Positions 8,565 to 57,955 of a stretch of DNA of 64,000 nucleotides are shown here, in pieces; position 1 is the first letter of the stretch, and each line of letters starts with the position of its first letter. The notes below the pieces were generated by a model. The model was given only the letters and a program-made list of their open reading frames with translations. It had not been told where the DNA came from and ran no database searches. The DNA is taken from positions 324,948 through 388,947 of the forward strand of contig JAKITS010000001.1 in assembly GCA_021648085.1 (NCBI GenBank). Reading direction: 5' to 3'. The DNA comes from Candidatus Magasanikiibacteriota bacterium (GTDB taxonomy: Bacteria > Patescibacteriota > Patescibacteriia > Magasanikbacterales > UBA922). Both the position numbers and the translations under genes were made by a program.

Positions 8565-11500
8565 TTATATCTTCCCACAAATTAAGTCATTTTCAAAATC
8601 CTCCAAGCCTTTTAGTGTTTTTTCATATTTACTAATATCTGGAAAATCTAAGTTTCTTATCTTTTTATCCACAGCAACAATTAGTTTTTTCAATCTTTCC
8701 ACATCTTCAGAAGTTATGTCATAAGGAAGGCAGTGAATTTCATCTAATTTTGTAGGATTCAGAAATTCCAAATACCCACGGTTTACAGTATATTTTGAAT
8801 AATCTCGTGAGAATTCTACCAAAAGTTTATAAAAAATAATCTGTCTTTTATAACCATGGAGTTGTACTTTTTTGTCTGGCAAACTTTCCTTCCAGCTCAA
8901 TTTATAACTTCCTGTTTTAAAATCATAAACCTCCATTTCTCTTGTTTCTTCATTTGGAACTATTTTATCAATTTTTCCTGTTATTTGTACATTTTCCACA
9001 AAAACTTGTTGCATTCGAAAATTTGTTTCTATCCAGCTTGTCGCAGAAATTCTATCTTGGTATTTATTCAAATATATTTTCCAAACCTCATTTCCCTTTT
9101 TTAAATACTTTTCAAAAATATTTTCTCTCATGTTTTCTCTTTCCAGGTGTCCTTTGAAGTATTTCTGAACTTCTTCAATATTCGGTTTAATTTCATTTTT
9201 AGAAATATGGTTATGTATACTCTCTACCGTCGCGTGCATTGCAACCCCATAAGAAAGAAAAGGGGTTTTTGAAGTTGGAAATCTCAGTAAGTTTTGTTCA
9301 AAAAACTCGTGCGGTCCGCCACGCATTACATTTAGAAAATTGTTCAGATGCGTGACACTTAAAATATATTTATCTAAAATTGGTTTTAATACAGATTTTT
9401 CATCCAAAGATAAAGGGCTAAACGACGGCAAACTTGTTTTTTCCAAAGAATTCACAGTATCCAAAATATTAGATTTTATTTCTTTTGCTTCAATTTTATA
9501 CTCCACACCTTCAAAAATAGAAGTTTCCAAAAATGGTACTCGGAGTGAATCTCTACCATTTGTCTTCTTTTTATAACTTGTCACATACAAATTACTTTTT
9601 GCGCGAGTAATTGCTACAAAAAATAAACGCAAATAATCATCTATTGTATCTCCCGCAGGATCAATCGATAAATTTTTTGGGAAAGCAATCATATCTCTGG
9701 ATTGTGATTTTGCCCAAACTTCATTTTGACAATTCAATACAAAAACTGTATCAAACTCCAACCCTTTTGCTTTGTGTGCTGTCAAAAGCGTGATAGCGCT
9801 TACTCCACCAATATATGGACTTGTGTCTGTTATCGCTAAATTGTGCATCTCGTATATATCCACACAGGAAACCAAATCAAAAAGTTTTGGGGCTGAAATA
9901 TCAGAAGTATACGATCGCACAGTGCTTACAAAAGTGTTCAAACTAGATAAAAATTGTATATATTCTGATGGATTTTTATTATATTTATCTTTGTGAAAAT
10001 AAAATCGACGAAATGAAGATGTAAATTTATTTTTAATTTCATCTGCTGGACCAATCAATTCATCTAACAAACTTCCCATTGGTTCTATGTGAGCTCGAGA
10101 AGCAAGATCCAAAAACCAATTTGCTATTTTTTGTAATTCTTTATTTTCACTTTCCAGCATTACATCTATCCACCTTCCTCTTGTGTCGGTCTTTTGTTTT
10201 TTGTATGCTTCAATTGAAAGTTTCCAAATAGTAGACCTATCCAAACCCCAAAATGGAAAAGATAAAATTGTCGACAAAAAATTCTGAGAATAATAAATAG
10301 AATCTTTTGCGAGAGAAGAGACAAGTCTAGCCATACAAATAATCTGATTTATATGAACTTCTTCCAACACATTTCTCTGACGCTCGTATTGAATTGGGAT
10401 TTGCTTTGCAAACAAAAATGGTGCAATTTCTTGAAGTTGTCTGTGATTTCTTGCAATCACAGAAATATTATCCAAACTCACCCCATTTTCAATTTTATAT
10501 TTTATTTCATTGGCAATATATTCGTATTCGTGAACAGCTGTATCAAAAGTATGTGCTGTAATTACACCTTCTTTTATATCTGGATTTGCAGATTCCAATT
10601 TTTTTTCAACCTCCTCCAACCTATCTACCAATCTATCATCCCCTTGAGAAATTACACGGTGTGCAAAATCTACAATTGCAGGAGTGGAGCGATAATTTTT
10701 TACCAAAGTTATCAATTTTGTTTCAGGATACTGCTCTCTAAATTGTAATATATTATTTATCTCTGCTCCTTGAAATTTATATATAGCCTGATCATCATCC
10801 CCAACAACCATTACATTCGGTTTACCTTCGTTTACTGGATTTTCTGTCAGCATATGAATAATTCTCATTTGTGCTTCGTTTGTGTCCTGAAACTCATCGA
10901 CAAGAATATATTGATATTTTTCTTGAAGTTCTGCCAAAAGCCCGGGTTTTTTTAATAAAACTCGAATCAAATCCAAAATCATATCATCAAAATCTACCAA
11001 CCCAATTTTTGCCATTGCTTTTTGATATTTTTCATAAACCAATCCCAAAGATATATTTCTATCCAATTGATATGCATCTTTTAAGCGCTTTTTTTTAGTT
11101 TCCTTATCTCTACCTATCCAATTATCCTTCCATTTTGTGATTGGTTTTGTACTATTTTCTTCTATTGCCTGCTCGTACGCATTCAAAAGTGAACGCAATA
11201 AAATATCTTTATAATCCAAAAGGCTAATATGTTCTATTGGCAATTTTGGTAAATCTATTTGTTTAATTTGAGAAATTAAAGTTGGTATTTGCTCTTTTAT
11301 TTTTTTGGAAACTCGTGGCTCAAAAAAAGGGATTAAAATTTCTTCTATTTTTGCAAAACAATCTCCATTTGATTTTACAATTTTTTGATATTCTTCTGGT
11401 GTAATTCCAGCTTTTTTCAATTTACTAATTTTATTTTTTATACTATTTAAATATACAAAAGTTCCATTACGCTTTGTACTAAATGAATCTGAAAATAATA

Positions 11501-12736: not shown

Positions 12737-12826
12737 ATTTTTATAAGATTTACCAAACTATTTGATATATTTTAATCTAATTACTTTATATTCTAAACTA
12801 AAAAAGCTCTTTCTACAAATGCATAT

Positions 12827-12856
12827 TTGACTTCTTTCTTTTTTTATTGATATAAT
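12827..12856 (+). promoter_or_regulatory. sigma70-type promoter for the ncRNA (TTGACT - 18 nt - TATAAT with TG extension)
   Basis: TTGACT at 12827-12832 and TGATATAAT at 12848-12856. The GC-rich RNA begins about 7 nt downstream. Confidence 0.6.
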
Positions 12857-12862
12857 AAAATT

Positions 12863-13076
12863 ATCCGGTCAGTAGTGTGAACCGCGTCGAGTAGGTCCTC
12901 GGGGTAGGATTCGAAATATGACAAAGTTTTCCCCACACACTGCTGACTGGTTCTAGTTCTTTTCCTCTGCAGCCGCACGAGCTCTCACCAAGGTTTTCAC
13001 ACCACAGGTCTGCGTATTTTCGCTCCCGCCCAACAACCAGCCAAAAAACCTCACACACAGCTCGTGCGGTTTTTTT
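12863..13076 (+). ncRNA. unclassified structured ncRNA (about 213 nt, about 50% GC in a 30% GC background)
   Basis: Bounded by a near-consensus promoter and by a helix CCGCACGAGCT/AGCTCGTGCGG followed by T7. Internal long-range helix CCGGTCAGTAGTGTG/CACACACTGCTGACTGG with G-U wobbles. The internal ORF (12861-13058, minus) is judged spurious. Confidence 0.5.
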
Positions 13077-13177
13077 ATTTTATTGATCTAGCAAAAAGAT
13101 TGTAAACATTGATTTAATTTTACTAAAATGATACATTAAAAATAATAGCTCATTACAAAATTAAATAGGAGGAGAAA

Positions 13178-27569: not shown

Positions 27570-27669
27570 AATTTATTTTAATTAATCTTTTAATCTTATA
27601 ATATCACAATTAACAAAATTGAGTAAATAAAAAGTAACACATATTAGGTTACTTTTTCGCTCGACGGGT

Positions 27670-28119
27670 CGGATTCGAACCGACGACCAATTGGTTACAC
27701 TCTACCCTCTGTTCCCAGAAGAAGTGGACTATATTATCACCCTCGCCTAAACCGCGTAAATCGCGGACGTTAGGGTGCGAAGCGCTTCCCAACAAATTGC
27801 AAACAATCTGTAAGTACTCCCGTAAAGGGATAGTCTCTGAACCTTCCGAATATAAGTCCTTATTACACAGACTATGCAAAACACATAAAGTGTACATATT
27901 CCTTTTTGTAATCTTTGGACTATACAAGGCTTGGCTGCTGATTGCCCTTGATATAGGGAACTGTTATTAAATACCATTTCTATTAAAAGCGTATTTAATG
28001 ACAGTTCCCAATTCATCGATTGGGTTTCCAGCAATTCACTTCGTTATTCACCTTGATGTTTCCACCAAGGGCTGCATTTTATATATACAGCCAACTGCTC
28101 TACCACTGAGCTACCGTCG
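27670..28119 (-). tRNA. tRNA-Asn(GUU), split by an intron in the anticodon loop (5' exon 28086-28119, 3' exon 27670-27707)
   Basis: Minus strand. 5' half TCGACGG-TA-GCTCAGTGGTAGAGC-A-GTTGG-CTGT and 3' half TAA-CCAAT-TGGTC-GTCGGTTCGAATCCGAC-CCGTCGA-G. Acceptor stem and T-arm are perfect. The spliced anticodon loop is CUGUUAA. Confidence 0.75.
27708..28085 (-). other. group I-like self-splicing intron (about 378 nt) inside tRNA-Asn
   Basis: Exon GGCUGU pairs with intron GCAGCC 9 nt into the intron (P1 with a U-G wobble at the splice site). P2 is CCTTGGTG-GAAA-CATCAAGG. CAGAGACTA motif in the P7 region. Intron ends in G (omega-G). The ORFs called inside it are spurious. Confidence 0.65.
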
Positions 28120-28165
28120 AATATTGGAACCTGAAAGATTCCTTTTGTAAAAATTACACCCCATC

Positions 28166-28504: not shown

Positions 28505-28625
28505 ACGTCATATTGAGCGAAGTGAAACGGAGTCGAAATATCTCGAAACCATATCACCAAAACTATGAATATTTAAAGTTCTTATTAAATTATCTCGAGA
28601 TCCCCCTACTGTCGCTCAGGATGGC
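28505..28625. repeat. structured repeat family R1, copy A (about 120 nt, three nested helices)
   Basis: Outer helix CGTCATATTGAGCG/CGCTCAGGATGGCG, middle ATCTCGA/TCGAGAT, inner AGAACT-atgaatatttaa-AGTTCT. Second copy at 41814-41935 with compensatory substitutions. Confidence 0.65.
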
Positions 28626-28670: not shown

Positions 28671-30869
28671 CTAATCAAGCTTCCTCCTTTTCAAAAGTAA
28701 AGAATTCAAAACAACAGAAATACTACTCATGGCCATCGCAAGCCCAGCATATTCTGCTTTCAAAAGTCCTAGTGCGGCAATTGGAATTCCCACACTATTA
28801 TAAAACAATGCCCAAAACATATTTTGTCTTATTTTACTCATAGTCATCCTACTCAGACGAATTGCCTTCACAGCATCCAAAATATCATTTTTCACCAACA
28901 CGATATCTCCAGATTCTATTGCCACATCTGTACCGCTACTCATAGCAATTCCAAGATCTGCTTGAGCCAAAGCCGGCGCGTCATTTATCCCATCTCCAAC
29001 CATTGCAACAAGCTCGCCTTTTTCTTGAATTTTCTTTATTTCTCCTGCTTTTTCTTCGGGCATTATTTCTGCCAAAACTTTGTCTATCCCAACTTTTTTT
29101 GCTATTGCTTCAGCTGTTTTCTTGTTATCTCCCGTCATTATTACACTTTTTATACCCATTTTATGTAGAAGTTTCAAAGCCTTTTTAGATGTTTTCTTCA
29201 CTGTATCTGCCACCGCCACCAAACCAATTACTTCTTTTTCTACTCCCACTATCATTACTGTTTTTCCCTCGCCTTCCAACTTGCTTTTTTTATTTTTCAG
29301 ATGAGATTCAAACTTTATACCATTTTTTTGCATAAATTTTTCAGTCCCCACATAAACTTCTTTTTTATCTATTACTCCACAAATTCCACTTCCTGGCACA
29401 GCTCTAAATTTACTCACCTCACTCAATTTAATTTTATCTTCTGCTGCTTTTTTCAATATAGCATCTGCCAAAGAATGCTCAGAATTTTTTTCCAAAGATG
29501 CAGACAAGCTCAACAATTCGGTTTTCTTTATTTCTTTTTTCGCAATAACCAAATTGGTCACAACAGGTTTTCCTTTGGTCAAAGTTCCAGTTTTATCAAA
29601 AACAACAGTTTTTACTTTTCCCGCAATTTCCAAGGCTTCACCTGTTTTTATCAAAATTCCATTTTCAGCACCTTTGCCAGTTCCCACTATAATTGCAGTA
29701 GGCGTCGCCAAACCAAGCGCGCATGGACAAGCTATAACAAGCACGGCGGTAAACGCAAGAAGTGCTGAAACGAAAGTAGAGCCGACTACAAAAAACCAAA
29801 CCACAAATGTCACAATCGCAATCACAACAACCGTTGGAACAAAATAGCTAGAGATTTTGTCGGCATATTTTTGAATTGGAGCTTTTGAACCTTGTGCCTC
29901 TTCTACCACTTTTATAATATGCGACAAAACTGTGTCTGCCCCAACTTTTTCTGCTTTAAATGTAAAACTTCCATTTTTGTTTATTGTTGCACCAATTACA
30001 TCACTTCCCTTCTTTTTGTCCACTGGAATACTTTCTCCAGAAATCATAGACTCATCTACTGCAGATCGTCCGTTCAAAACAACACCATCAACAGGAATTT
30101 TTTCACCGGGACGAATTACTATAGTATCCCCTACTTTTACACTTTCTATTTTAACCTCTACTTCTTTTCCATTTTTCAAAATCCTCGCAGTTTTTGCCTG
30201 CAAACCAATCAATTTTTTTATAGCGTCTCCTGCTTTTCCTTTTACCCTAGCTTCTAGCCATTTTCCCAAAACTATAAAAGTTATAAGCAAAGCTGAAGTC
30301 TCAAAAAACACCTCTCCACCCAAAATATAAGTAGATGCTAAACTATAAAAATATGCTGCACTCGTCCCAACTGCAACCAAAGTATCCATATTTGCAGTTT
30401 TGTTGCGCGTTGCATAATACATTCCTCTATAAAATCTGTAACCTATTCCAAATTGAATTATTCCTGCGAGCACAGATTGAACGACTAAACTTCCAAAAGA
30501 TTTGTTCATCAAAAACATACTCAAAATCAAAACAGGCAATGCCAAAAATGCACTTAGTAAAAATAAGTTGCGCTCTTTTTTTATTTCTTTTTTGGTATCA
30601 ATTTTTGAATGGTTGTGGTTATTAATATTTAAACCTTCTTCACCTTTCTTTTTTGATACCACCCCAACCATCTTATATCCACTTTTCTTTATTACCCTCT
30701 CTACTTCACTTGCATCCAAATCACCCTCTATTGTCGCTTTTTGTGTAGCATAATTTACATTCGCACGTTTTACACCTTTTAATTTTGATAAGTTTTTTTC
30801 TATTGTTATCGCACAAGACGCGCAGTGCATCCCTTCTATTCCATACTGTTTAATTTCTTTTTTATCCAT
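28671..30869 (-). CDS. copA: copper-translocating P1B-type ATPase
   Basis: N-terminal HMA domain GMHCASC, CPC in TM6, DKTGTLT, and GDGINDAPAL. 732 aa. Confidence 0.93.
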   Translation of the reverse strand: MDKKEIKQYGIEGMHCASCAITIEKNLSKLKGVKRANVNYATQKATIEGDLDASEVERVIKKSGYKMVGVVSKKKGEEGLNINNHNHSKIDTKKEIKKERNLFLLSAFLALPVLILSMFLMNKSFGSLVVQSVLAGIIQFGIGYRFYRGMYYATRNKTANMDTLVAVGTSAAYFYSLASTYILGGEVFFETSALLITFIVLGKWLEARVKGKAGDAIKKLIGLQAKTARILKNGKEVEVKIESVKVGDTIVIRPGEKIPVDGVVLNGRSAVDESMISGESIPVDKKKGSDVIGATINKNGSFTFKAEKVGADTVLSHIIKVVEEAQGSKAPIQKYADKISSYFVPTVVVIAIVTFVVWFFVVGSTFVSALLAFTAVLVIACPCALGLATPTAIIVGTGKGAENGILIKTGEALEIAGKVKTVVFDKTGTLTKGKPVVTNLVIAKKEIKKTELLSLSASLEKNSEHSLADAILKKAAEDKIKLSEVSKFRAVPGSGICGVIDKKEVYVGTEKFMQKNGIKFESHLKNKKSKLEGEGKTVMIVGVEKEVIGLVAVADTVKKTSKKALKLLHKMGIKSVIMTGDNKKTAEAIAKKVGIDKVLAEIMPEEKAGEIKKIQEKGELVAMVGDGINDAPALAQADLGIAMSSGTDVAIESGDIVLVKNDILDAVKAIRLSRMTMSKIRQNMFWALFYNSVGIPIAALGLLKAEYAGLAMAMSSISVVLNSLLLKRRKLD

Positions 30870-30956
30870 ATACTTCTAAATTACTAAATATTTTACACAA
30901 TACCCACTTATTATAACATTTTTCAAGTTTTATGCGGGTATTGTGCAAAATCTAAA

Positions 30957-31838
30957 CTACTTTTTATCACTTAATATTACTGTGTTTGTATCTAAATCTT
31001 TATAATTAACACCAATAACATCCAAATCTCTAAATATAAACACACCGTCATCTTCTACACTTCCAACTTTAGACCAAACATTACGCAAAGAATTGTAATC
31101 TCCAGCCTCTTTTGACATTATTATTGTTGGAACAGACTTTATATTATATCTATCTATCAATTCCTGCCCCTCCAAATCTGAAATATCAACAAGTTTTTCA
31201 CTAGCAAATACAATTCCAAATCTTTGCAAAATAGGTTTTTGTGTCTGAACGACATCAAAACACACATCACAAGTCTTGTCAACTATATATATTGTATTTA
31301 CTAAACCAACCGTCTTGTTTGAAGTATTATCAAAGAAAGGAAGTTTTGTTTTTTCCCATACCAATGTTTTTTCTTCGAATAGTCGTAAATTATTTTTAAA
31401 CGCTCTTGATAACTTACTTTTTATATTTTCTTCAGACTGAAATATTAATGCGGGAAGTTTACTTATATTTAATTTTTTTATCAATTCTTTTGCTGTGTCA
31501 TCATTTGCAAAAATAACTTTGTCATCTAAAATTTCAATATTTTGCGCGAGTAAAACTGTTTTTTCTTCTAACATATCCCCACAACTCTCACAATCCAAAG
31601 GCTTAATAAGTGTCAAGGTTCCTTCTTGCGGTTTTGCAATATCAACCGCTTCGCCCAATTTACTGTTTACAGAAAAGGTAAATAGTGCCATTGCAATAAT
31701 ATTTACAACAACCACAATCGCAAAAAATATAATAAGGTTTCGTGTTAAATTCTTTTTCAATTTTGATAGAATTTTTATATTTTTATATTTTTTTTCACTA
31801 CAACAATCCACAATCTTTTTTTTATTTATATCTGTCAT
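30957..31838 (-). CDS. membrane-anchored thioredoxin-fold protein with two CxxC motifs (CESC, CDVC)
   Basis: N-terminal TM, then two repeats each carrying CxxC and a conserved cis-Pro context (KSVPTI). Confidence 0.55.
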   Translation of the reverse strand: MTDINKKKIVDCCSEKKYKNIKILSKLKKNLTRNLIIFFAIVVVVNIIAMALFTFSVNSKLGEAVDIAKPQEGTLTLIKPLDCESCGDMLEEKTVLLAQNIEILDDKVIFANDDTAKELIKKLNISKLPALIFQSEENIKSKLSRAFKNNLRLFEEKTLVWEKTKLPFFDNTSNKTVGLVNTIYIVDKTCDVCFDVVQTQKPILQRFGIVFASEKLVDISDLEGQELIDRYNIKSVPTIIMSKEAGDYNSLRNVWSKVGSVEDDGVFIFRDLDVIGVNYKDLDTNTVILSDKK

Positions 31839-31858
31839 ATTTTTTCTAATTAATTATC

Positions 31859-32044
31859 TTAACAACCACCAACCATTTCTGGCGATGAGCCATCATCTGT
31901 AAAACTAACAGAAGTAGGCGAAGAACCAATTCCAATCTCAGCCTCATTTATATTCTTGCTCATATCTACAAGCATAAATGTCTGATAAGATGATACCGCA
32001 ATTGCTAAAACCAACATTATAGTTAGAGTTTTTTGTGAAAACAT
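31859..32044 (-). CDS. small secreted or membrane protein ending in SPEMVGGC
   Basis: 61 aa. N-terminal hydrophobic segment. The C-terminal 6 codons are encoded by the same 17-nt string TTAACAACCACCAACCA that ends the next gene. Confidence 0.4.
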   Translation of the reverse strand: MFSQKTLTIMLVLAIAVSSYQTFMLVDMSKNINEAEIGIGSSPTSVSFTDDGSSPEMVGGC

Positions 32045-32065
32045 ATTTTATTATTTAGAAATTAA

Positions 32066-32794
32066 TTAACAACCACCAACCATTCCAGGTGATTTTATGT
32101 CTGGCTTAAATCCAGAATTTTTTGCTTTTTCTTTTAGATTTTTCAACTCATCTTCGCTCAAATTCATTGTCAAATACTTTATGTCTGAAGTAAATTTTTC
32201 AACCTCTCCAGAAAGTGAATTTGCCATACGCTCTTGCATTTGAGATGGAAAATACATTCCCTTTTGCCGCATAAGCTCATACGCAATTTCAGCATCCGTC
32301 ATTTCTGGATAATTTCTAATTAAATACGCAGCTGTGCCACGCATTGCAATAGAATGTGCACAACCACAGGTTGGAGAGCCATCTTTTCGCACCAAAGTTT
32401 TTACACCACAACAAAATTCACATGTAATATACGGCTCTGTCCCTATTTTTACATACCTTTCCATCTCCTCTTTATTCAATTCAATCGGATTAGAACCTTG
32501 CATTGGTGCCATTATAGACAACTTCTTTATAGATGCATTTATAGCGTTTATACTAGACATATCCAAACCAAGCTCTACTCCATAAAATGGCATTTCTGTT
32601 GGTGTCACTAAAATAGCAACATCTTTTGCAAAGTCTCCAGTCATAATCATACCGTCCATATTGTGAGAACCAATCATTTGTGAGCCTACCTGCATTGCAA
32701 GTGCCTGATTTGCTATCAGCACAAAACCAACCACAACAATTGCCACCTTTTGAAATAAAAGATGGATATTTTTATTTAAAACATATTTTTTCAT
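32066..32794 (-). CDS. Met/His- and Cys-rich putative metal-binding protein ending in SPGMVGGC
   Basis: Signal/TM N-terminus, Met-rich stretch (GSQMIGSHNMDGMIMTG), Cys cluster (CEFCCG...CGCAHS), C-terminal MVGGC. Confidence 0.55.
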   Translation of the reverse strand: MKKYVLNKNIHLLFQKVAIVVVGFVLIANQALAMQVGSQMIGSHNMDGMIMTGDFAKDVAILVTPTEMPFYGVELGLDMSSINAINASIKKLSIMAPMQGSNPIELNKEEMERYVKIGTEPYITCEFCCGVKTLVRKDGSPTCGCAHSIAMRGTAAYLIRNYPEMTDAEIAYELMRQKGMYFPSQMQERMANSLSGEVEKFTSDIKYLTMNLSEDELKNLKEKAKNSGFKPDIKSPGMVGGC

Positions 32795-32811
32795 ATAACA
32801 TATTTAATTAA

Positions 32812-33252
32812 TTACCAATCTCTACAACACGCAATAATTTGCTCAACTGTTTTTTTAATTTTTGGACTATTTCTCATAAAAAATAAACTCAAAAATATAA
32901 ACCAAACAATCAACAAAAATATAATCGTGTCAACCCAAAACTTATTTTGATCAAGAAAAAAAGCTATAAAAACAATAGATGACAATAAAAAAGGTAGTCT
33001 AAATATATGCCATTTATTTTTTAACTTTCTTTCCAATAAATAATAAAAACCTATCGTACTTTGCCCCATAAGAATTCCTATTACTAAAGGATTGTCAAAC
33101 AAGCCTTTCCAAAAAAGAAAAAGTAATACAATCCAAGCAATAGAAATACTTGCACAAATAGCACAGACCTTAAGTTTTATTATTTGTTTTATAATCAAAA
33201 TTAATAAAAATAAAACTGTAATTAAGACTATTGCAACAATTAGTGAATTCAT
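32812..33252 (-). CDS. small polytopic membrane protein with CAIC motif in TM and C-terminal CC
   Basis: 146 aa, 4 TM. Sits in the copper/redox operon. Confidence 0.45.
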   Translation of the reverse strand: MNSLIVAIVLITVLFLLILIIKQIIKLKVCAICASISIAWIVLLFLFWKGLFDNPLVIGILMGQSTIGFYYLLERKLKNKWHIFRLPFLLSSIVFIAFFLDQNKFWVDTIIFLLIVWFIFLSLFFMRNSPKIKKTVEQIIACCRDW

Positions 33253-33776
33253 AGTGTCAATTGCACAATTAAAGAGAACAAAACCAAAAGACTAAATGTA
33301 ATAATAATGCCTTGATAAGGAATTAACTTTCCATTACGCTTTTCTTTTATATACATACTCAAATACGGAGATGCGTACATAATCAAAGTTCCAACAATAA
33401 CACCAACAATAAATTTATTGTACATATAAGTACGGTTCAAAAGAGATCCGTATTCACCAAATAAATATAAATTGAAAGATTGATATTCTGTAATTAACGG
33501 CATAATTGGAATAATTGTAGACAAAAAAACAAGAGTAATAATTATCTGTTTTTGATATTTTATATATTGTTTTTTTACTATTCTCTCTATCCACAAACTA
33601 AGTGCCAAAGCAAAAGCTCCTATAAACATACCGACAATAATAGTAGACACACCCAAATATGCAGCACCGACAGCAAGCGCGCCCGCGCCCGCTGTACACA
33701 GCGGACAATGGGCTTTTGCAATAGTTGGCACAAACAAACCGATAGAAAGAAATGATACAGCTATTTTTTTATTCAT
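33249..33776 (-). CDS. membrane protein with N-terminal HCPLC motif
   Basis: 175 aa. CxxC at the start of the first TM region. Overlaps its neighbours by 4 nt. Confidence 0.45.
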   Translation of the reverse strand: MNKKIAVSFLSIGLFVPTIAKAHCPLCTAGAGALAVGAAYLGVSTIIVGMFIGAFALALSLWIERIVKKQYIKYQKQIIITLVFLSTIIPIMPLITEYQSFNLYLFGEYGSLLNRTYMYNKFIVGVIVGTLIMYASPYLSMYIKEKRNGKLIPYQGIIITFSLLVLFSLIVQLTL

Positions 33777-33785
33777 ATTTTAAAA

Positions 33786-34271
33786 TTACAACTGCATAAA
33801 TTCTGAAGTTCCACCATCATCCATTTGGTAAATTGTAAACAATCCCTTTTTTGAACCTGGCATCCCAGGAGAACCAACTGGCATTCCAGGCATTGCAATT
33901 CCATTTACACTAGGTTTTTCTTCCAAAAGTTTATTTACAGCCTTAACTGGAATATGACCTTCTACAACATAACCATCGTTTATTATTGTTGTATGACAAC
34001 TCTCCATATTTCCTGGTATATTATGTTCATTTTTTATTGTATCCATATCATCTGTTTCTATCATTTCCACTTCAAATCCATTGCGACGAAGATATGAGAC
34101 ATAGTTTGCACAACAACCACAGCTTGGAGATTTATAAACTGTAGCTGTTTTTGCAGACACATTTTCTACACCACCACTAACTCCTTTTTTTGTTATTCCA
34201 ATTCCAGAAATCCAAGCCCCAAATACTAATACTGCAACAGACAAACCAATAATTTTTGTTTTCTTTTTCAT
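33786..34271 (-). CDS. DUF411/CopG-like periplasmic copper-binding protein
   Basis: SPSCGCC and ESCHT motifs plus MPGMPVGSPGMPG Met-Pro repeats. Typical of copper-resistance-operon DUF411 proteins. Confidence 0.65.
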   Translation of the reverse strand: MKKKTKIIGLSVAVLVFGAWISGIGITKKGVSGGVENVSAKTATVYKSPSCGCCANYVSYLRRNGFEVEMIETDDMDTIKNEHNIPGNMESCHTTIINDGYVVEGHIPVKAVNKLLEEKPSVNGIAMPGMPVGSPGMPGSKKGLFTIYQMDDGGTSEFMQL

Positions 34272-34367
34272 AACTTTAAACTTAAATAATTAATAAATTA
34301 TATATAAATATAATTTTATATATCAAAAAAACCATACCCTAAAAAAACAAGAGTATAGATCTAAAAA

Positions 34368-34748
34368 TTACCAAGTTTTTGGATGAAGTATGCCTATCTT
34401 AAATAGACGAGAAAAATAATTGAAAAAGCTGAAATCACCAAAGCGTGACCGAACTCGTTTTAAATATAAATAAAAATTATCATTTTTTAGCGAACTAAAA
34501 ATAAATGATAGAAAAATAGAAAAAACTAAAGAAAAAAGTATTTTTTCAAATGGATTGGAAGTTAAAACAAAATCATACATATGCATTCCCAAATTTACTG
34601 TATATTGCTCTGTGCAACAAGGCATATCATGGTCTGAAGAATTTTGCATACCAGAAAAAGCCATAGCAACAGAACCACCAAAACAAGAAACTATAAGAGC
34701 TATAAATACTCCTATTGAGAATAAGATTTTCCAATTCATTTTTTTCAT
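34368..34748 (-). CDS. hypothetical membrane protein with MPCC motif
   Basis: 126-aa ORF with N-terminal TM. First gene of the island. Confidence 0.4.
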   Translation of the reverse strand: MKKMNWKILFSIGVFIALIVSCFGGSVAMAFSGMQNSSDHDMPCCTEQYTVNLGMHMYDFVLTSNPFEKILFSLVFSIFLSFIFSSLKNDNFYLYLKRVRSRFGDFSFFNYFSRLFKIGILHPKTW

Positions 34749-34793
34749 AGTCTATATATTATAACAAATTTTTTAAAAAGTACAATGCTTTTA

Positions 34794-34832
34794 AAACAAA
34801 AACAAACCTATTCAAAGGTTTGTTTTTGTTTT
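34794..34832. terminator. long hairpin terminator AAACAAAAACAAACC-loop-GGTTTGTTTTTGTTT
   Basis: 15-bp stem. A near-identical stem recurs at 41666-41702. Confidence 0.65.
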
Positions 34833-34840
34833 AAAAGTTT

Positions 34841-41665: not shown

Positions 41666-41702
41666 AAACAAAAACAAACCTTTTCAGGTTTGTTTTTGTT
41701 TG
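41666..41702. terminator. hairpin AAACAAAAACAAACC-ttttca-GGTTTGTTTTTGTTT abutting the tRNA-Gln 3' end
   Basis: 15-bp stem identical to the one at 34794-34832. Confidence 0.6.
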
Positions 41703-41774: not shown

Positions 41775-41813
41775 TATTTATAGAATTAAGAACTTAGATC
41801 TTAATTCTATTCA

Positions 41814-41935
41814 CGTCATATTGAGCAGAACGAAGTGGAGTCGAAATATCTCGATGCAATATTATTAGAACTATGAATATTTAAAGTTCTAGTGTTTTTG
41901 AATCGAGATCCATTCGACTTCGCCCAGGATGACAT
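41814..41935. repeat. structured repeat family R1, copy B
   Basis: Same three-helix architecture as 28505-28625. A 10-bp hairpin TAGAATTAAG-aacttagat-CTTAATTCTA sits at 41780-41808 between it and tRNA-Gln. Confidence 0.65.
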
Positions 41936-51165: not shown

Positions 51166-51238
51166 GATCTGGTAGCTCAGTAGGTAGAGCAGCAGCCTTT
51201 TAAGCTGATGGTCGTGGGTTCGATCCCCACCCAGGTCA
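51166..51238 (+). tRNA. tRNA-Lys(UUU)
   Basis: GATCTGG-TA-GCTCAGTAGGTAGAGC-A-GCAGC-CTTTTAA-GCTGA-TGGTC-GTGGGTTCGATCCCCAC-CCAGGTC-A. Confidence 0.88.
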
Positions 51239-51312
51239 CAAAAAAAACATCTTAATTGGTGTTTTTTTATTTTTAATGTAAAATAGATATAAATTCTACA
51301 AAGGAGGGAAAA

Positions 51313-51594
51313 ATGGAAGCTGTAAGTATTAGTTCTGCAATTAATTCAATCTTAATAATCATTGGAATTCTGTATTTTACAGGAATTGCTCTTTACACAT
51401 TTACAATATTAGTAGATAAATCAAAAAAGTTTACGCAAAGAAAAATATTAAAAGTAATGATTCTTTTTTCTATACCTTTATTTGTCATAACTTTTTCAAG
51501 TATCTCAATGTCAAGCTCTGGTGCAAGTATTTTTATATACTGTTCACTTTTTATCTTATCAATCTTTTTTGTAATAACTTGGCACAAAACATAG
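51313..51594 (+). CDS. small 3-TM membrane protein, cassette 1
   Basis: RBS AAGGAGGG. Followed by the terminator AAAGCACCTAAACTGGGTGCTTTT. Confidence 0.5.
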   Translation: MEAVSISSAINSILIIIGILYFTGIALYTFTILVDKSKKFTQRKILKVMILFSIPLFVITFSSISMSSSGASIFIYCSLFILSIFFVITWHKT

Positions 51595-51597
51595 TAA

Positions 51598-51624
51598 CAA
51601 AAAAGCACCTAAACTGGGTGCTTT
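51598..51624 (+). terminator. cassette terminator 1 (GCACCTAAACTGGGTGC hairpin)
   Basis: First of three near-identical hairpins (see 52028 and 52436). Confidence 0.7.
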
Positions 51625-51696
51625 TAATTTACAAAAATATAAAAAAATGGTAGTATGAAGTAGGTCTTATTTTTTTACACCCAAAAGGAGGTACAA

Positions 51697-52020
51697 ATGT
51701 CTGAATTTCTAAATTCAATTGTAAATATTAATACCTACTCACTATTGCACTTTTTAGTTATAATTACTTTTATATTTATTATGATTTCAATAATTTGTCA
51801 GGTTTTTTTGAAAAAATATTATTATATACTTGTTATTTCAGTTTGTTCTACACTCTTGTTTTCTGTGATTACTTTTTCCACAGGACTTTATTATATGATA
51901 TTCGACTTATCTTCAGAACTTAGTATTATGATATATGTAAGTTTAGTGCTTATTTTTATAAATATGATCATAAATGCTTTAAATATGAACTGGGTGTTAG
52001 ATAAATATAAAAAGGTATAG
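51697..52020 (+). CDS. small 3-TM membrane protein, cassette 2
   Basis: RBS AAAGGAGG. Own TTTACA/TAGTAT promoter. Followed by terminator copy 2. Confidence 0.5.
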   Translation: MSEFLNSIVNINTYSLLHFLVIITFIFIMISIICQVFLKKYYYILVISVCSTLLFSVITFSTGLYYMIFDLSSELSIMIYVSLVLIFINMIINALNMNWVLDKYKKV

Positions 52021-52027
52021 AAACAGT

Positions 52028-52053
52028 AAAGCACCTAAATTAGGTGCTTTTTT
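52028..52053 (+). terminator. cassette terminator 2 (GCACCTAAATTAGGTGC hairpin)
   Basis: Repeat of the terminator at 51598. Confidence 0.7.
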
Positions 52054-52055
52054 AA

Positions 52056-52083
52056 TTGACAAAATATCTAAAAAATGATAATG
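52056..52083 (+). promoter_or_regulatory. cassette promoter (TTGACA - 15/16 nt - GATAAT), fused to the preceding terminator repeat
   Basis: TTAATTGACA follows the terminator in copies 2 and 3; copy 1 has TTAATTTACA. Confidence 0.55.
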
Positions 52084-52122
52084 TAGTGTTTGAAAATAAA
52101 CCAAAAAAATAGAGGAATACGC

Positions 52123-52446
52123 GTGAATTATCTAGAAATTCTAAAAACACTTATAATGTTTAGTTTATTTTCAATAGCACTGCACATTATATTTTATATG
52201 TTTTTTGCAGGAAATCCCTATTCAACATTTGGTAAATCTAACGCAACTTTGGAAAAAACATCCACATCTAGCACTTTGACAATCACAGGACTTACAAGTT
52301 TAGCCTGGATTTATCTAGCTTTTGTAGAAAAAATAGAGATGAGTACAAAAATTACAGCAATTTGCTTTATTATAATCTGTATTTTTTTTGGAATTTTAAT
52401 ATCCCAATCTAAAACATTTAAAAGTGATAATCCACGAAGCACCTAA
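52123..52446 (+). CDS. small 3-TM membrane protein, cassette 3 (GTG start assumed)
   Basis: The ORF-track start at 52090 lies before the predicted -10 (52077-52082) and TSS. AGAGGAA RBS precedes in-frame GTG at 52123. Confidence 0.45.
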   Translation: MNYLEILKTLIMFSLFSIALHIIFYMFFAGNPYSTFGKSNATLEKTSTSSTLTITGLTSLAWIYLAFVEKIEMSTKITAICFIIICIFFGILISQSKTFKSDNPRST

Positions 52447-52462
52447 TTTAGGTGCTTTTTTA
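52436..52462 (+). terminator. cassette terminator 3 (GCACCTAATTTAGGTGC hairpin)
   Basis: Repeat of the terminator at 51598. Confidence 0.7.
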
Positions 52463-52523
52463 ATTGACAGCTTTGATAAAAAAATATTATGCTAAATAGA
52501 GTTCTTTAACAAAGGAGTTCCCA

Positions 52524-52820
52524 ATGAATGAGTTCATTTACAGATCGCTTTTTGTTGTTGCAGATTTTGCTTGCTTATTTACAATTGTTTTATTACTTCC
52601 ATATTATGTTTATCCAAGAATAAAACTCAAACTTATTCCACGAGCTAAAAATTTAAAAGCATTATCTTTTTCTTCTTTTACAACAGCATTTCTATATTTT
52701 ATATGTTTTCTAGAAAATTATACTTGGTATTTTCTACTTACTTCTATAATATTTATAGTCTCATCTATGTTTTTTATGGGGCAACTAATAGAATATAAAC
52801 GCAAAACAACGGGTAAATAA
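52524..52820 (+). CDS. small 3-TM membrane protein, cassette 4
   Basis: RBS AAAGGAG. Different terminator (CCCGTTGTTTTTTT). Confidence 0.5.
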   Translation: MNEFIYRSLFVVADFACLFTIVLLLPYYVYPRIKLKLIPRAKNLKALSFSSFTTAFLYFICFLENYTWYFLLTSIIFIVSSMFFMGQLIEYKRKTTGK

Positions 52821-57220: not shown

Positions 57221-57955
57221 TTAGAGACTAGATTCTATTGCAGATGTAAACAACTCAACATTTAATGTATTAGGCTCAAACCTTTCTCCATTTAAAAAGA
57301 AAGTTGGCGTTCCTTGGACATTCATTGCATTTCCGGAAGCAATATCTGTTTTAATTTTATTTTCTACCTCATCACTGGAAAAATCTTGCAAAAACTTATC
57401 TCTGTCTAAACCCAATTCTTCCGCATATTCTACAAATTTTTCTTTTGCTTTACTACTACTTGCCCAGCTAGACTGTCGTGAATAAAGTAAGTCATGCATC
57501 TCCCAAAATTTATCCTGTTTTCTGGCCGCCTCTGATGCTCTAGATGCATCAAATGCATTTGGGTGAATAGATTCAAGTGGATAATGCCTATAAACCACTT
57601 GCAGACCCCCACTCATCTTTTCATAAGCTCCACTTACAACACTGCTATACTGCTTACATCCTCCACATTGAAAATCTGCATATTCCACTAAAACTGCAAC
57701 TGCTTCTGGATTTCCTTTTACCACATCATCTACTCTTATTTCTTGTGGATTTTCCACTTTTGGTGAAGTTTCTATATTATTTTTCAACCACCAAAATCCT
57801 ACCACAACCAAAACACCTACAACCCCCCAAATCACAATATTTTTTATCTTTTTACTTTTTTCTGCTTTTTCTTTATTTTCCTTATCCTCTTCTTTTCTTT
57901 TATCTCTCCTTTCTCTCTTTGTTAAATTATGTTCATTTTGTATTTCTTCTTCCAT
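57221..57955 (-). CDS. DsbA-like thiol:disulfide oxidoreductase (membrane-anchored, CGGC active site)
   Basis: Lys/Glu-rich N-terminus, TM, then a thioredoxin fold with YADFQCGGCKQY. Confidence 0.6.
   Translation of the reverse strand: MEEEIQNEHNLTKRERRDKRKEEDKENKEKAEKSKKIKNIVIWGVVGVLVVVGFWWLKNNIETSPKVENPQEIRVDDVVKGNPEAVAVLVEYADFQCGGCKQYSSVVSGAYEKMSGGLQVVYRHYPLESIHPNAFDASRASEAARKQDKFWEMHDLLYSRQSSWASSSKAKEKFVEYAEELGLDRDKFLQDFSSDEVENKIKTDIASGNAMNVQGTPTFFLNGERFEPNTLNVELFTSAIESSL

Follow-up and report, generated by a model that had tools for sequence, protein, structure and literature searches.

A candidate copper-tolerance operon with an undescribed pair of cysteine-tailed proteins in a Magasanikbacteria genome

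The 64,000-nucleotide stretch of a Candidatus Magasanikiibacteriota genome analysed here (contig JAKITS010000001.1, positions 324,948 to 388,947 of the forward strand; hereafter the window, GC content about 31%) carries on its minus strand, between positions 28671 and 34748, a cluster of eight genes that ends in copA and that we label g1 to g8 in 5′ to 3′ order. In the reading that we favour, to which we give an even chance, the cluster is a copper-tolerance operon of the candidate phyla radiation (CPR) that couples Cu(I) efflux to thiol-based handling on the outer face of the membrane. At the level of the system this would be a known type, the copper-resistance operon with thiol-oxidoreductases, and its central components are uncharacterised. 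The strongest part of the finding is that g6 belongs to a two-protein signature, strictly conserved in CPR bacteria and DPANN archaea and so far undescribed, whose other half, g5, has a confidently predicted fold that is nevertheless without a match in the PDB.

The grouping of the cluster genes is not a chance juxtaposition, since dozens of independent CPR and DPANN genomes carry these genes together. In a scan that took one genome for each GTDB species (185,579 species genomes), 222 loci with a g5 relative were found, of which 80 were kept; the record titles are all CPR or DPANN, or else generic or doubtful but attached to similar contigs. Once loci from three further look-ups had been added and duplicates removed, 82 non-redundant loci were analysed, 46 of them bacterial and 36 archaeal. 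The shared orientation of the eight genes is uninformative, because 51 of the 55 long open reading frames (ORFs) in the window lie on the minus strand. An earlier note on this DNA, made from the sequence alone, had described eight minus-strand ORFs ending in copA, and all of them are present, with their motifs, at the coordinates given below; its statement that several overlap by 4 nt fails, as only g3 and g4 do so (33249–33252), and the other intergenic gaps measure, in order, 96, 9, 17, 21, 20, and 87 nt. Every protein of the cluster other than CopA carries conserved Cys, Met, or His motifs. When all eight proteins were searched against Pfam and NCBIfam, g1, g3, g4, g5, and g6 had no match, and by this measure five of the eight belong to no described family.

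Three genes can be assigned. The last, g8 (28671–30869, minus strand, 732 aa), scores 618.2 bits against the NCBIfam model TIGR01511 (cut-off 397) and 675 bits against TIGR01525 (cut-off 346), also matches the Pfam families PF00122, PF00702, and PF00403, the latter being the heavy-metal-associated (HMA) domain (E value 6e-18), and has A. fulgidus CopA as its closest PDB match (3J09, E value 5.7e-195). Its translation contains GMHCASC in the N-terminal HMA domain, ACPCALGLATP with the CPC of transmembrane helix (TM) 4, FDKTGTL, LFYNSVG with the YN of TM5, and MAMSS with the MxxSS of TM6, all as predicted for a P1B-1 Cu(I)-exporting ATPase, CopA. Its earlier identification as a Cu(I) efflux ATPase is upheld by the score above the TIGR01511 cut-off and by the match to 3J09.

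CopG proteins have a tetranuclear copper cluster and copper oxidoreductase activity, both of which are putative in g2 (33786–34271, minus strand, 161 aa; motifs CGCC, SCH, and MPGMPVGSPGMPG). That the protein is DUF411/CopG-like, as had been proposed, was confirmed by the Pfam model PF04214 (88.6 bits, gathering cut-off 27, E value 2.1e-25) and by PDB entry 6WIS (E value 6.4e-23), with which the CxCC, GHxP, and MPxGSPGM motifs align. The CGCC at residues 51–54 and MPVGSPGM correspond to the CxCC and the Met pair of CopG (PMC7558416, PMC8456105), and we class g2 as a membrane-anchored or secreted CopG/DUF411 protein with a thioredoxin-like fold. In Pseudomonas, CopG is a copper oxidoreductase that aids anaerobic copper resistance, and it is often linked to copA (PMC7558416, PMC8456105).

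The third assigned gene, g7 (30957–31838, minus strand, 293 aa), encodes two CxxC motifs (CESC and CDVC) and two cis-Pro loops, and the residues concerned (C83/C86, P129, C190/C193, and P237) are invariant in 29 sequences. In the PDB, the family profile has its best matches among the structures of protein disulfide oxidoreductases (PDOs), namely 1J08 (E value 2.5e-7), 1A8L (4e-7), and 2YWM/2AYT (1.4e-4), the latter spanning both units. The window protein itself gives weak matches to Pfam and TIGR02187, and does not reach the cut-off of the TIGR02187 equivalog (26 bits against 185); its homologues exceed the Pfam thioredoxin cut-offs, and archaeal relatives carry a third unit. The earlier description as a double thioredoxin holds on the strength of the two CxxC motifs, the two cis-Pro loops, and the PDO matches, and g7 is a membrane-anchored double thioredoxin that is nearest to archaeal PDOs and has a PDO-like architecture, outside the TIGR02187 equivalog.

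The pair g5 (32066–32794, minus strand, 242 aa) and g6 (31859–32044, minus strand, 61 aa) precedes g7. The former, annotated as hypothetical protein L3J07_01780 (100% identity), consists of an N-terminal TM anchor, a Met-rich linker, an outward domain that is predicted to be all-alpha, and a tail of the form LPxMVGGC. Invariant in the family are C125-x2-C128-C129...C143-x-C145-x-H147 and the C-terminal G-G-C, and the Met-rich stretch and Cys cluster (CEFCCG...CGCAH) that had been read from the window protein are both present. An AlphaFold2 model built from 25 sequences (predicted local distance difference test, pLDDT, 90.2; predicted template modelling score, pTM, 0.81) is all-alpha, with a Cys-rich loop that contains two beta-bridges, and gives the tail a pLDDT of 68–81, i.e., the tail is not modelled as free. 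Foldseek returned no fold relative of this model from the PDB (best E value 1.3, TM-score below 0.2), and searches with the sequence gave no match in Pfam, NCBIfam, or the PDB. At 50% identity, the family falls into about 300 clusters in a set of 1.84 billion representative proteins; Pfam searches of unusually long relatives yielded one FKBP fusion only, plus undescribed membrane N-termini.

The small partner g6 is made up of a TM anchor, a low-complexity linker, and the tail SPEMVGGC, which compares with SPGMVGGC in g5, the last 28 nt being 89% identical; the paralogy of the two tails, already suspected for the 61-aa protein, is thereby sustained. Directly downstream of g5, 78 of the 82 loci have a g6-like small TM-anchored ORF with an MVGGC ending, and tail logos of 77 g5 and 78 g6 sequences give the common ending [N/D/S]-L-P-x-M-V-G-G-C-COOH. 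Among the 9,735 ORFs of the loci a GGC ending occurs 163 times, in 162 cases on g5 or g6. We define the pair by a C-x2-C-C-G...C-x-C-x-H domain, a [LV]-P-x-M-V-G-G-C tail, and an adjoining small TM protein with the same tail, a definition borne out by the invariant columns of the family, by the tail logos, and by the adjacency in 78 of the 82 loci. A literature search for the MVGGC motif returned nothing relevant.

Two known kinds of C-terminal motif were considered and rejected for these tails. A sortase (LPXTG) or other sorting signal, which would be trailed by a hydrophobic segment and a basic tail and be borne by many cargo proteins, does not fit, as LPxMVGGC is the extreme C-terminus with nothing after it and is restricted within the loci to g5 and g6. 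Nor does a GG-terminal sulfur carrier of the ThiS/MoaD/CysO type, which has a beta-grasp fold, as g5 is modelled as all-alpha and TM-anchored, g6 is a TM segment with a low-complexity linker, and no ThiS match was found in Pfam. Tentatively, and short of calling it probable, we propose that g5 and g6 represent a hitherto unrecognised kind of cysteine-tail relay that works outside the cytoplasm, has a new fold, is specific to the ultra-small CPR bacteria and DPANN archaea, and has been exchanged between the two domains. The identical Met/Cys-tipped arms of these two membrane-tethered proteins would shuttle Cu(I) or reducing equivalents between CopA, the Cys/His-cluster domain, and the PDO-like thioredoxin, and would replace the logic of CusF/CueO and DsbB/DsbD in cells that have neither an outer membrane nor respiratory quinones.

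The remaining three proteins are membrane proteins, whose topology, like that of the whole cluster, was predicted from hydropathy, the positive-inside rule, and the assumption of N-in single anchors. On this basis, the domains of g2, g5, g6, and g7, an MPCC loop of g1, and an HCPLC site of g3 would face outwards, and both Cys motifs of g4 would lie on the cytoplasmic side. The first, g1 (34368–34748, minus strand, 126 aa), has two TM segments and an outward loop, delimited by hydropathy and by the distribution of Lys and Arg, that lacks these two residues, is rich in Met and His, and contains the vicinal MPCC; its basic C-terminus ends in GILHPKTW, and in six bacterial loci, among them L001, L006, and L015, the 5′ edge of the cluster is occupied by a homologue with the same C-terminus. 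The protein g3 (33249–33776, minus strand, 175 aa) has four TM segments and, behind a signal-like segment, an invariant A-HCPLCT (H23, C24, P25, L26, and C27). We found 294 homologues of it, none with a Pfam domain, and in 15 loci, nine of them archaeal, it follows CopG; its AlphaFold2 model (pLDDT 87.5, pTM 0.76) has four TM helices and a beta-hairpin in the second outer loop, and the PDB offered neither a fold match (Foldseek, none with an E value below 1) nor a sequence-profile match. The polytopic g4 (32812–33252, minus strand, 146 aa) has an invariant CxxC (CAIC; C30 and C33) that follows a basic loop and, in its basic tail ACCRDW, a vicinal CC (C142 and C143) that is likewise invariant. 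Its 42 homologues have CPR titles only and no Pfam domain, the PDB sequence-profile search gave nothing meaningful, and in Peregrinibacteria-type loci (L005, L017, and L069) it is encoded immediately upstream of CopA. The CxxC motifs of these two small polytopic proteins, which had been described as intramembrane, are present, although hydropathy places them at predicted membrane boundaries and not deep in the bilayer.

Neither g3 nor g4 matches a DsbD/CcdA family in Pfam or NCBIfam, and a hidden Markov model of the CcdA-like domain from related loci matches nothing in the window. With only two cysteines, in a single CxxC outside its TM helices, g3 is unlike DsbD/CcdA, in which there is one Cys in each of two TM helices. 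Assignment of g3 or g4 to the thiol oxidases DsbB/VKOR, characterised by a four-helix membrane core with a CxxC, a second Cys pair in a loop, and a quinone site, was rejected for want of a Pfam, NCBIfam, or PDB sequence match for either protein, of a fold match for g3, and of a second Cys pair in g3. Homology of g3 or g4 to the membrane CPxC domain fused to long forms of g5 found no support (hhalign probabilities 2.3% and 0.6%), a short CPxC...YxGxS motif in common with g3 being all that is shared. A Mer-type transporter was likewise discarded for g3 and g4, as no Mer model of Pfam or NCBIfam matched at E values up to 1 and no merA, merP, or merR was found.

Synteny across the 82 loci reinforces the copper-plus-thiol theme of the earlier note, related loci containing CopA, CsoR, CopG, Met-rich, CcdA-like, and DsbA-like proteins. 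Besides the g6-like ORF, the commonest companion of g5 is g7, which adjoins g5/g6 in 59 loci; where it is missing, a CopG–g3 unit or a DsbA-like gene comes next. A CcdA-like membrane domain occurs in 47 loci and a membrane CPxC module, either free-standing or joined to the N-terminus of g5, in 42, followed by DUF1573 (31), a BlaI/CopY-family repressor with an M56 protease (26), DUF411 (24), CsoR (20), DsbA-like proteins (17), and Met-rich proteins (16). Full-length CopA lies within 10 kb in 30 loci, at a median distance of 3.3 kb, against a chance expectation of about 2% for one copA in a genome of about 1 Mb. Of the 37 complete loci, i.e., those extending 7 kb or more on each side, 35 have an adjacent thioredoxin-fold partner (g7, DsbA-like, or DUF411) and 26 have a strict copper marker (CopA, CsoR, CopG, or Cu oxidase).

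These counts also bear on a rival explanation, rather unlikely in our judgement, by which g5, g6, and g7, possibly with g3 and g4, would mainly form an extracytoplasmic Dsb-like thiol-disulfide system, serving oxidation, isomerisation, or reduction, for the quinone-poor CPR and DPANN; the tail cysteines would then be redox substrates or shuttles and not metal ligands, and the copper genes would adjoin only because cells under copper stress need to repair disulfides. The CPxC motif is typically redox-active, and the CPxC module, the CcdA-like domain, and the thioredoxin-fold partners, which are more constant than the copper markers, all agree with such a system. Against this, CopA, CsoR, CopG, and Met-rich proteins are enriched far above chance, the conserved Met that precedes the tail Cys by four residues, like the Met-rich g5 linker, is better suited to Cu(I) ligation than to disulfide exchange, g3 has a single Cys pair without a second relay pair, and no DsbB, VKOR, or DsbD model matches any protein of the window. 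The window encodes, far from the cluster, a separate membrane-anchored DsbA-like protein (57221–57955, minus strand; PF13462 and PF01323; active site CGGC), beside which no DsbB/VKOR-like gene is evident.

We favour copper because the tail Met is conserved, the linkers are rich in Met, and CopA, CsoR, and CopG are enriched. In the copper-tolerance operon that we propose, CopA would expel Cu(I), and the flexible, Met/Cys-tipped tails of g6 and g5 would act as tethered arms that capture the ion as it leaves the ATPase and hand it on, first to the g5 Cys/His cluster and then to CopG, for oxidation or release. A direct hand-off of Cu(I) from CopA to an outer acceptor has a precedent in CusF (PMC8456105). 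The double thioredoxin g7 would keep the exposed thiols reduced and repair wrong disulfides produced by copper catalysis, comparable to the need of E. coli for DsbC under copper stress, and the CcdA-like membrane domain of related loci probably feeds electrons to it. On the inner side, g4 is a candidate membrane-bound donor of Cu(I) to CopA, given its predicted cytoplasmic CxxC and CC tail and its position next to CopA in Peregrinibacteria.

Several points weigh against this scheme. No CcdA-like electron donor and no copper-sensing regulator were detected by profile searches within the 64-kb window, where the CcdA-like, CsoR, BlaI, DUF1573, Met-rich, and CC-tail families were all sought and not found. 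Eleven of the 37 complete loci have no strict copper marker within 7–10 kb, so that the link to copper is frequent and not obligatory, and that to thioredoxins almost obligatory. The five Cys residues of the g5 domain could equally form a structural Zn site or disulfides, and the topology has hydropathy as its basis. Of the copper and thiol-redox character that the earlier note had given to the cluster, the part carried by CopA, CopG, the double thioredoxin, and synteny stands; the DsbD/CcdA, CopC, or CusF domains that it had named for checking are absent from the window's own genes, and five genes remain outside any family. One weak TM match in the family search of the window (52524–52820) was dismissed, being without cysteines.

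The full order g1-g2-g3-g4-g5-g6-g7-copA recurs in other Magasanikbacteria (loci L006, L015, and L016), and the order is CsoR-DUF1573-...-g5-g6-g7-...-g4-CopA in L005 and g1-DsbA-...-g5-g6-g7-Cu oxidase-CsoR in L001. The latter, from another Magasanikbacteria genome, has a NirK-like two-domain Cu oxidase after g7 (10251–11456) and, downstream of CsoR, a 114-aa remnant of the CopA C-terminus (12817–13161), which suggests decay of copA in that lineage. The position of this oxidase, directly after g7 in L001 and L002, speaks for a second alternative, namely that the module supplies copper exported by CopA to extracytoplasmic cuproenzymes, with the tails as chaperones that metallate Cu oxidases or NirK-like enzymes. 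A parallel exists in R. capsulatus, where copper exported by CopA and the small periplasmic CutF are needed for maturation of the CutO oxidase (PMC8456105). We regard this as improbable: a Cu oxidase is nearby in only three of the 82 loci, the CsoR-type repressors found in 20 loci are typical of responses to excess copper, and the window cluster is without a cuproenzyme gene.

A third alternative, which we hold to be more improbable still, is that the Cys-tail pair traffics other thiophilic species, either persulfide sulfur or Hg, Ag, Cd, or As, the copper genes being one type of neighbour among several. DsrC/TusE transfer sulfur by means of a Cys arm at the C-terminus, which offers a parallel; a DUF1573–rhodanese fusion lies directly upstream of g5 in L001, and in the archaeal locus L003 the genes downstream of g5/g6 include a cysteine desulfurase, an ArsP-type permease, and small thioredoxins. 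Such rhodanese, desulfurase, and ArsP neighbours are, however, sporadic, no mer or ars marker recurred in the census, and CopA, of the Cu(I) type, is the sole recurrent transport ATPase.

Further genes of note occur in the related loci. ORFs of 400–540 aa in about ten loci (e.g., L005:10677–12290) are fusions of DUF1573, a DUF411-like thioredoxin, and a six-TM CcdA-like domain that carries the motifs NPC and PCSGG, and the membrane part has a weak Pfam match only, to SfLAP (LysE clan). A soluble protein of about 165 aa, present in 17 loci (e.g., L038:7733–8227, L031:12066–12569, and L008:7003–7557), ends in ...CCKEW or ...NCCDE, with the vicinal-Cys motif that also closes the g4 tail (...ACCRDW), which suggests a cytoplasmic CC-tail counterpart to the external MVGGC tails. 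In loci L018–L030, from Woesearchaeota and Nanoarchaeota, there are additional undescribed conserved genes, including a lipoprotein-like ORF of about 70 aa with an internal GGGCG, a His-rich protein of about 190 aa (HxHADVKVYING...HIHATG), and a protein with a VKOR-type thioredoxin-like domain.

Compared with known systems, the cluster shares with the cop/cue/cut clusters (Pseudomonas copG, R. capsulatus cutFOG) a Cu(I) P1B-ATPase, a DUF411/CopG protein with CxCC and Met pair, and small secreted partner proteins with conserved Cys motifs. In those known systems, CopA feeds acceptors in the outer compartment (PMC7558416, PMC8456105). The window differs from them in having no CusCFBA, CueO, CopC/D, or CopZ, in that five of the eight families are undescribed, and in that DPANN archaea share the module; every component would be membrane-tethered because the host probably has no outer membrane. 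The Scs proteins, named for the suppression of copper sensitivity, likewise link extracytoplasmic thioredoxin-fold proteins to copper tolerance, and with Scs and the DsbC/DsbD proteins of Proteobacteria the cluster has in common such proteins outside the cytoplasm and, in related loci, an electron conduit of DsbD/CcdA type in the form of the CcdA-like domain. DsbC is needed under copper stress according to a passage in PMC7558416 that cites the original work. No ScsB/DsbD or DsbC/G homologue was detected in the window, however, Scs has no counterpart of the Cys tails, and g7 is a PDO-like tandem and not a DsbA/DsbG fold with a dimerisation domain. The PDOs of Pyrococcus and Aquifex (1A8L, 1J08, 2AYT, and 2YWM; TIGR02187) have the same two tandem thioredoxin units with a CxxC each; known PDOs are cytoplasmic and soluble, whereas g7 is N-terminally anchored in the membrane with its thioredoxin units predicted outside.

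The nearest conceptual analogue of the tails is the C-terminal HCH tail of Ctr1, a motif for handing off copper, and, like CusF, it shares with g5 and g6 the idea of a short flexible thiolate/thioether motif at a Cu transporter. There is no relation in sequence or fold to Ctr1 or CusF, the tail here is borne by two separate tethered proteins, and its metal binding is putative. As a lead only, the boundary Cys pair and cytoplasmic vicinal pair of g4 and the outer-face pair of g3 recall MerT/MerC/MerF, from which they differ in TM number and motif positions.

The surroundings of the cluster bear on the suggestion of the earlier note that, flanked by repeats and a tRNA gene, it is accessory DNA. 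Between the stop codon of a DEAD-box helicase gene and g1, a perfect 22-bp inverted repeat (34788–34837) forms a terminator-like hairpin at the upstream boundary of the cluster; the hairpin AACAAAAACAAACC-loop-GGTTTGTTTTTGTT at 34795–34830 has its sole other copy in the window at 41667–41700, just after tRNA-Gln. Downstream of copA and upstream of a tRNA gene with an intron lies a repeat of about 99 nt (28505–28603), with exactly two copies in the window, the second just upstream of tRNA-Gln (41813–41911; 78% identity). Both contain the conserved core ACGTCATATTGAGC...GGAGTCGAAATATCTCGA and internal inverted repeats, and both precede a tRNA gene in the minus-strand sense; the repeat, which has no part in what the operon does, may be a tRNA-leader/promoter element or else a small RNA with structure. 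The tRNA gene itself (27650–28135, minus strand), which was missed by ARAGORN and by the Rfam tRNA model at its gathering threshold, is split by a group I intron (27705–28096; RF00028, 79.9 bits, E value 2e-20). The flanking elements are thus real and the intron is confirmed, although the step from them to accessory DNA fails: both repeats have their second copy beside tRNA-Gln, and so resemble an element that precedes tRNA genes and a terminator used twice, not island borders.

That the region is a recently acquired island of functionally unrelated genes is, in our estimate, extremely improbable and largely refuted. The repeats and the tRNA gene do adjoin the cluster, and its flanks are not syntenic in relatives, in which the module sits in different neighbourhoods. 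In base composition and codon usage, on the other hand, the cluster is indistinguishable from the rest of the window (GC content 0.316 against 0.319, GC content at third codon positions 0.226 against 0.223, with codon usage likewise matching). The flanking genes encode an AcrB-family exporter, a PAS protein, a DEAD-box helicase, a cupin, an ABC-F protein, and a methyltransferase, with no integrase or transposase among them, no g5 relatives were found in viral contigs, the repeats belong to tRNA and terminator contexts, and the same gene set recurs in many genomes. On a longer time scale the module is accessory and mobile, because its occurrence is patchy (222 matches in the species-level scan), its flanks are not syntenic, and bacterial and archaeal branches interleave in a rough neighbour-joining tree of g5 without support values. 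The accessory nature of the DNA that had been proposed is therefore retained in the sense of long-term mobility, and abandoned in the sense of a visibly recent island.

Within the cluster, a promoter-like site (TTGATA-18-TATAAT, 34297–34326, minus strand, 11 of 12 consensus matches) lies in the 96-nt gap between g1 and g2; promoter-like sites across the region are in total no more numerous than in shuffled sequences, and this one is to be taken as a consensus match only. GC skew is negative in almost every 1-kb bin of the window, alongside the minus-strand bias of the ORFs, and the two together are consistent with the window lying inside a single replichore. Elsewhere on the plus strand, directly after tRNA-Lys (51166–51239), four consecutive small ORFs for Cys-free membrane proteins (51313–52820), set in an AT-rich stretch, may be a small insertion.

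The CPR and DPANN make up a large share of microbial diversity, and most of their surface proteins are without an assigned function. Our analysis places five undescribed protein families in a copper/thiol context at the cell surface and provides a searchable signature, two adjacent genes whose products end in LPxMVGGC, that connects 222 species-level genomes from two domains. If the tails are true shuttles of Cu(I) or redox equivalents, they would show how cells without a periplasm, quinones, or the usual chaperones handle copper and the oxidation of exported thiols, and would add a new fold to the repertoire of metallochaperones or oxidoreductases.

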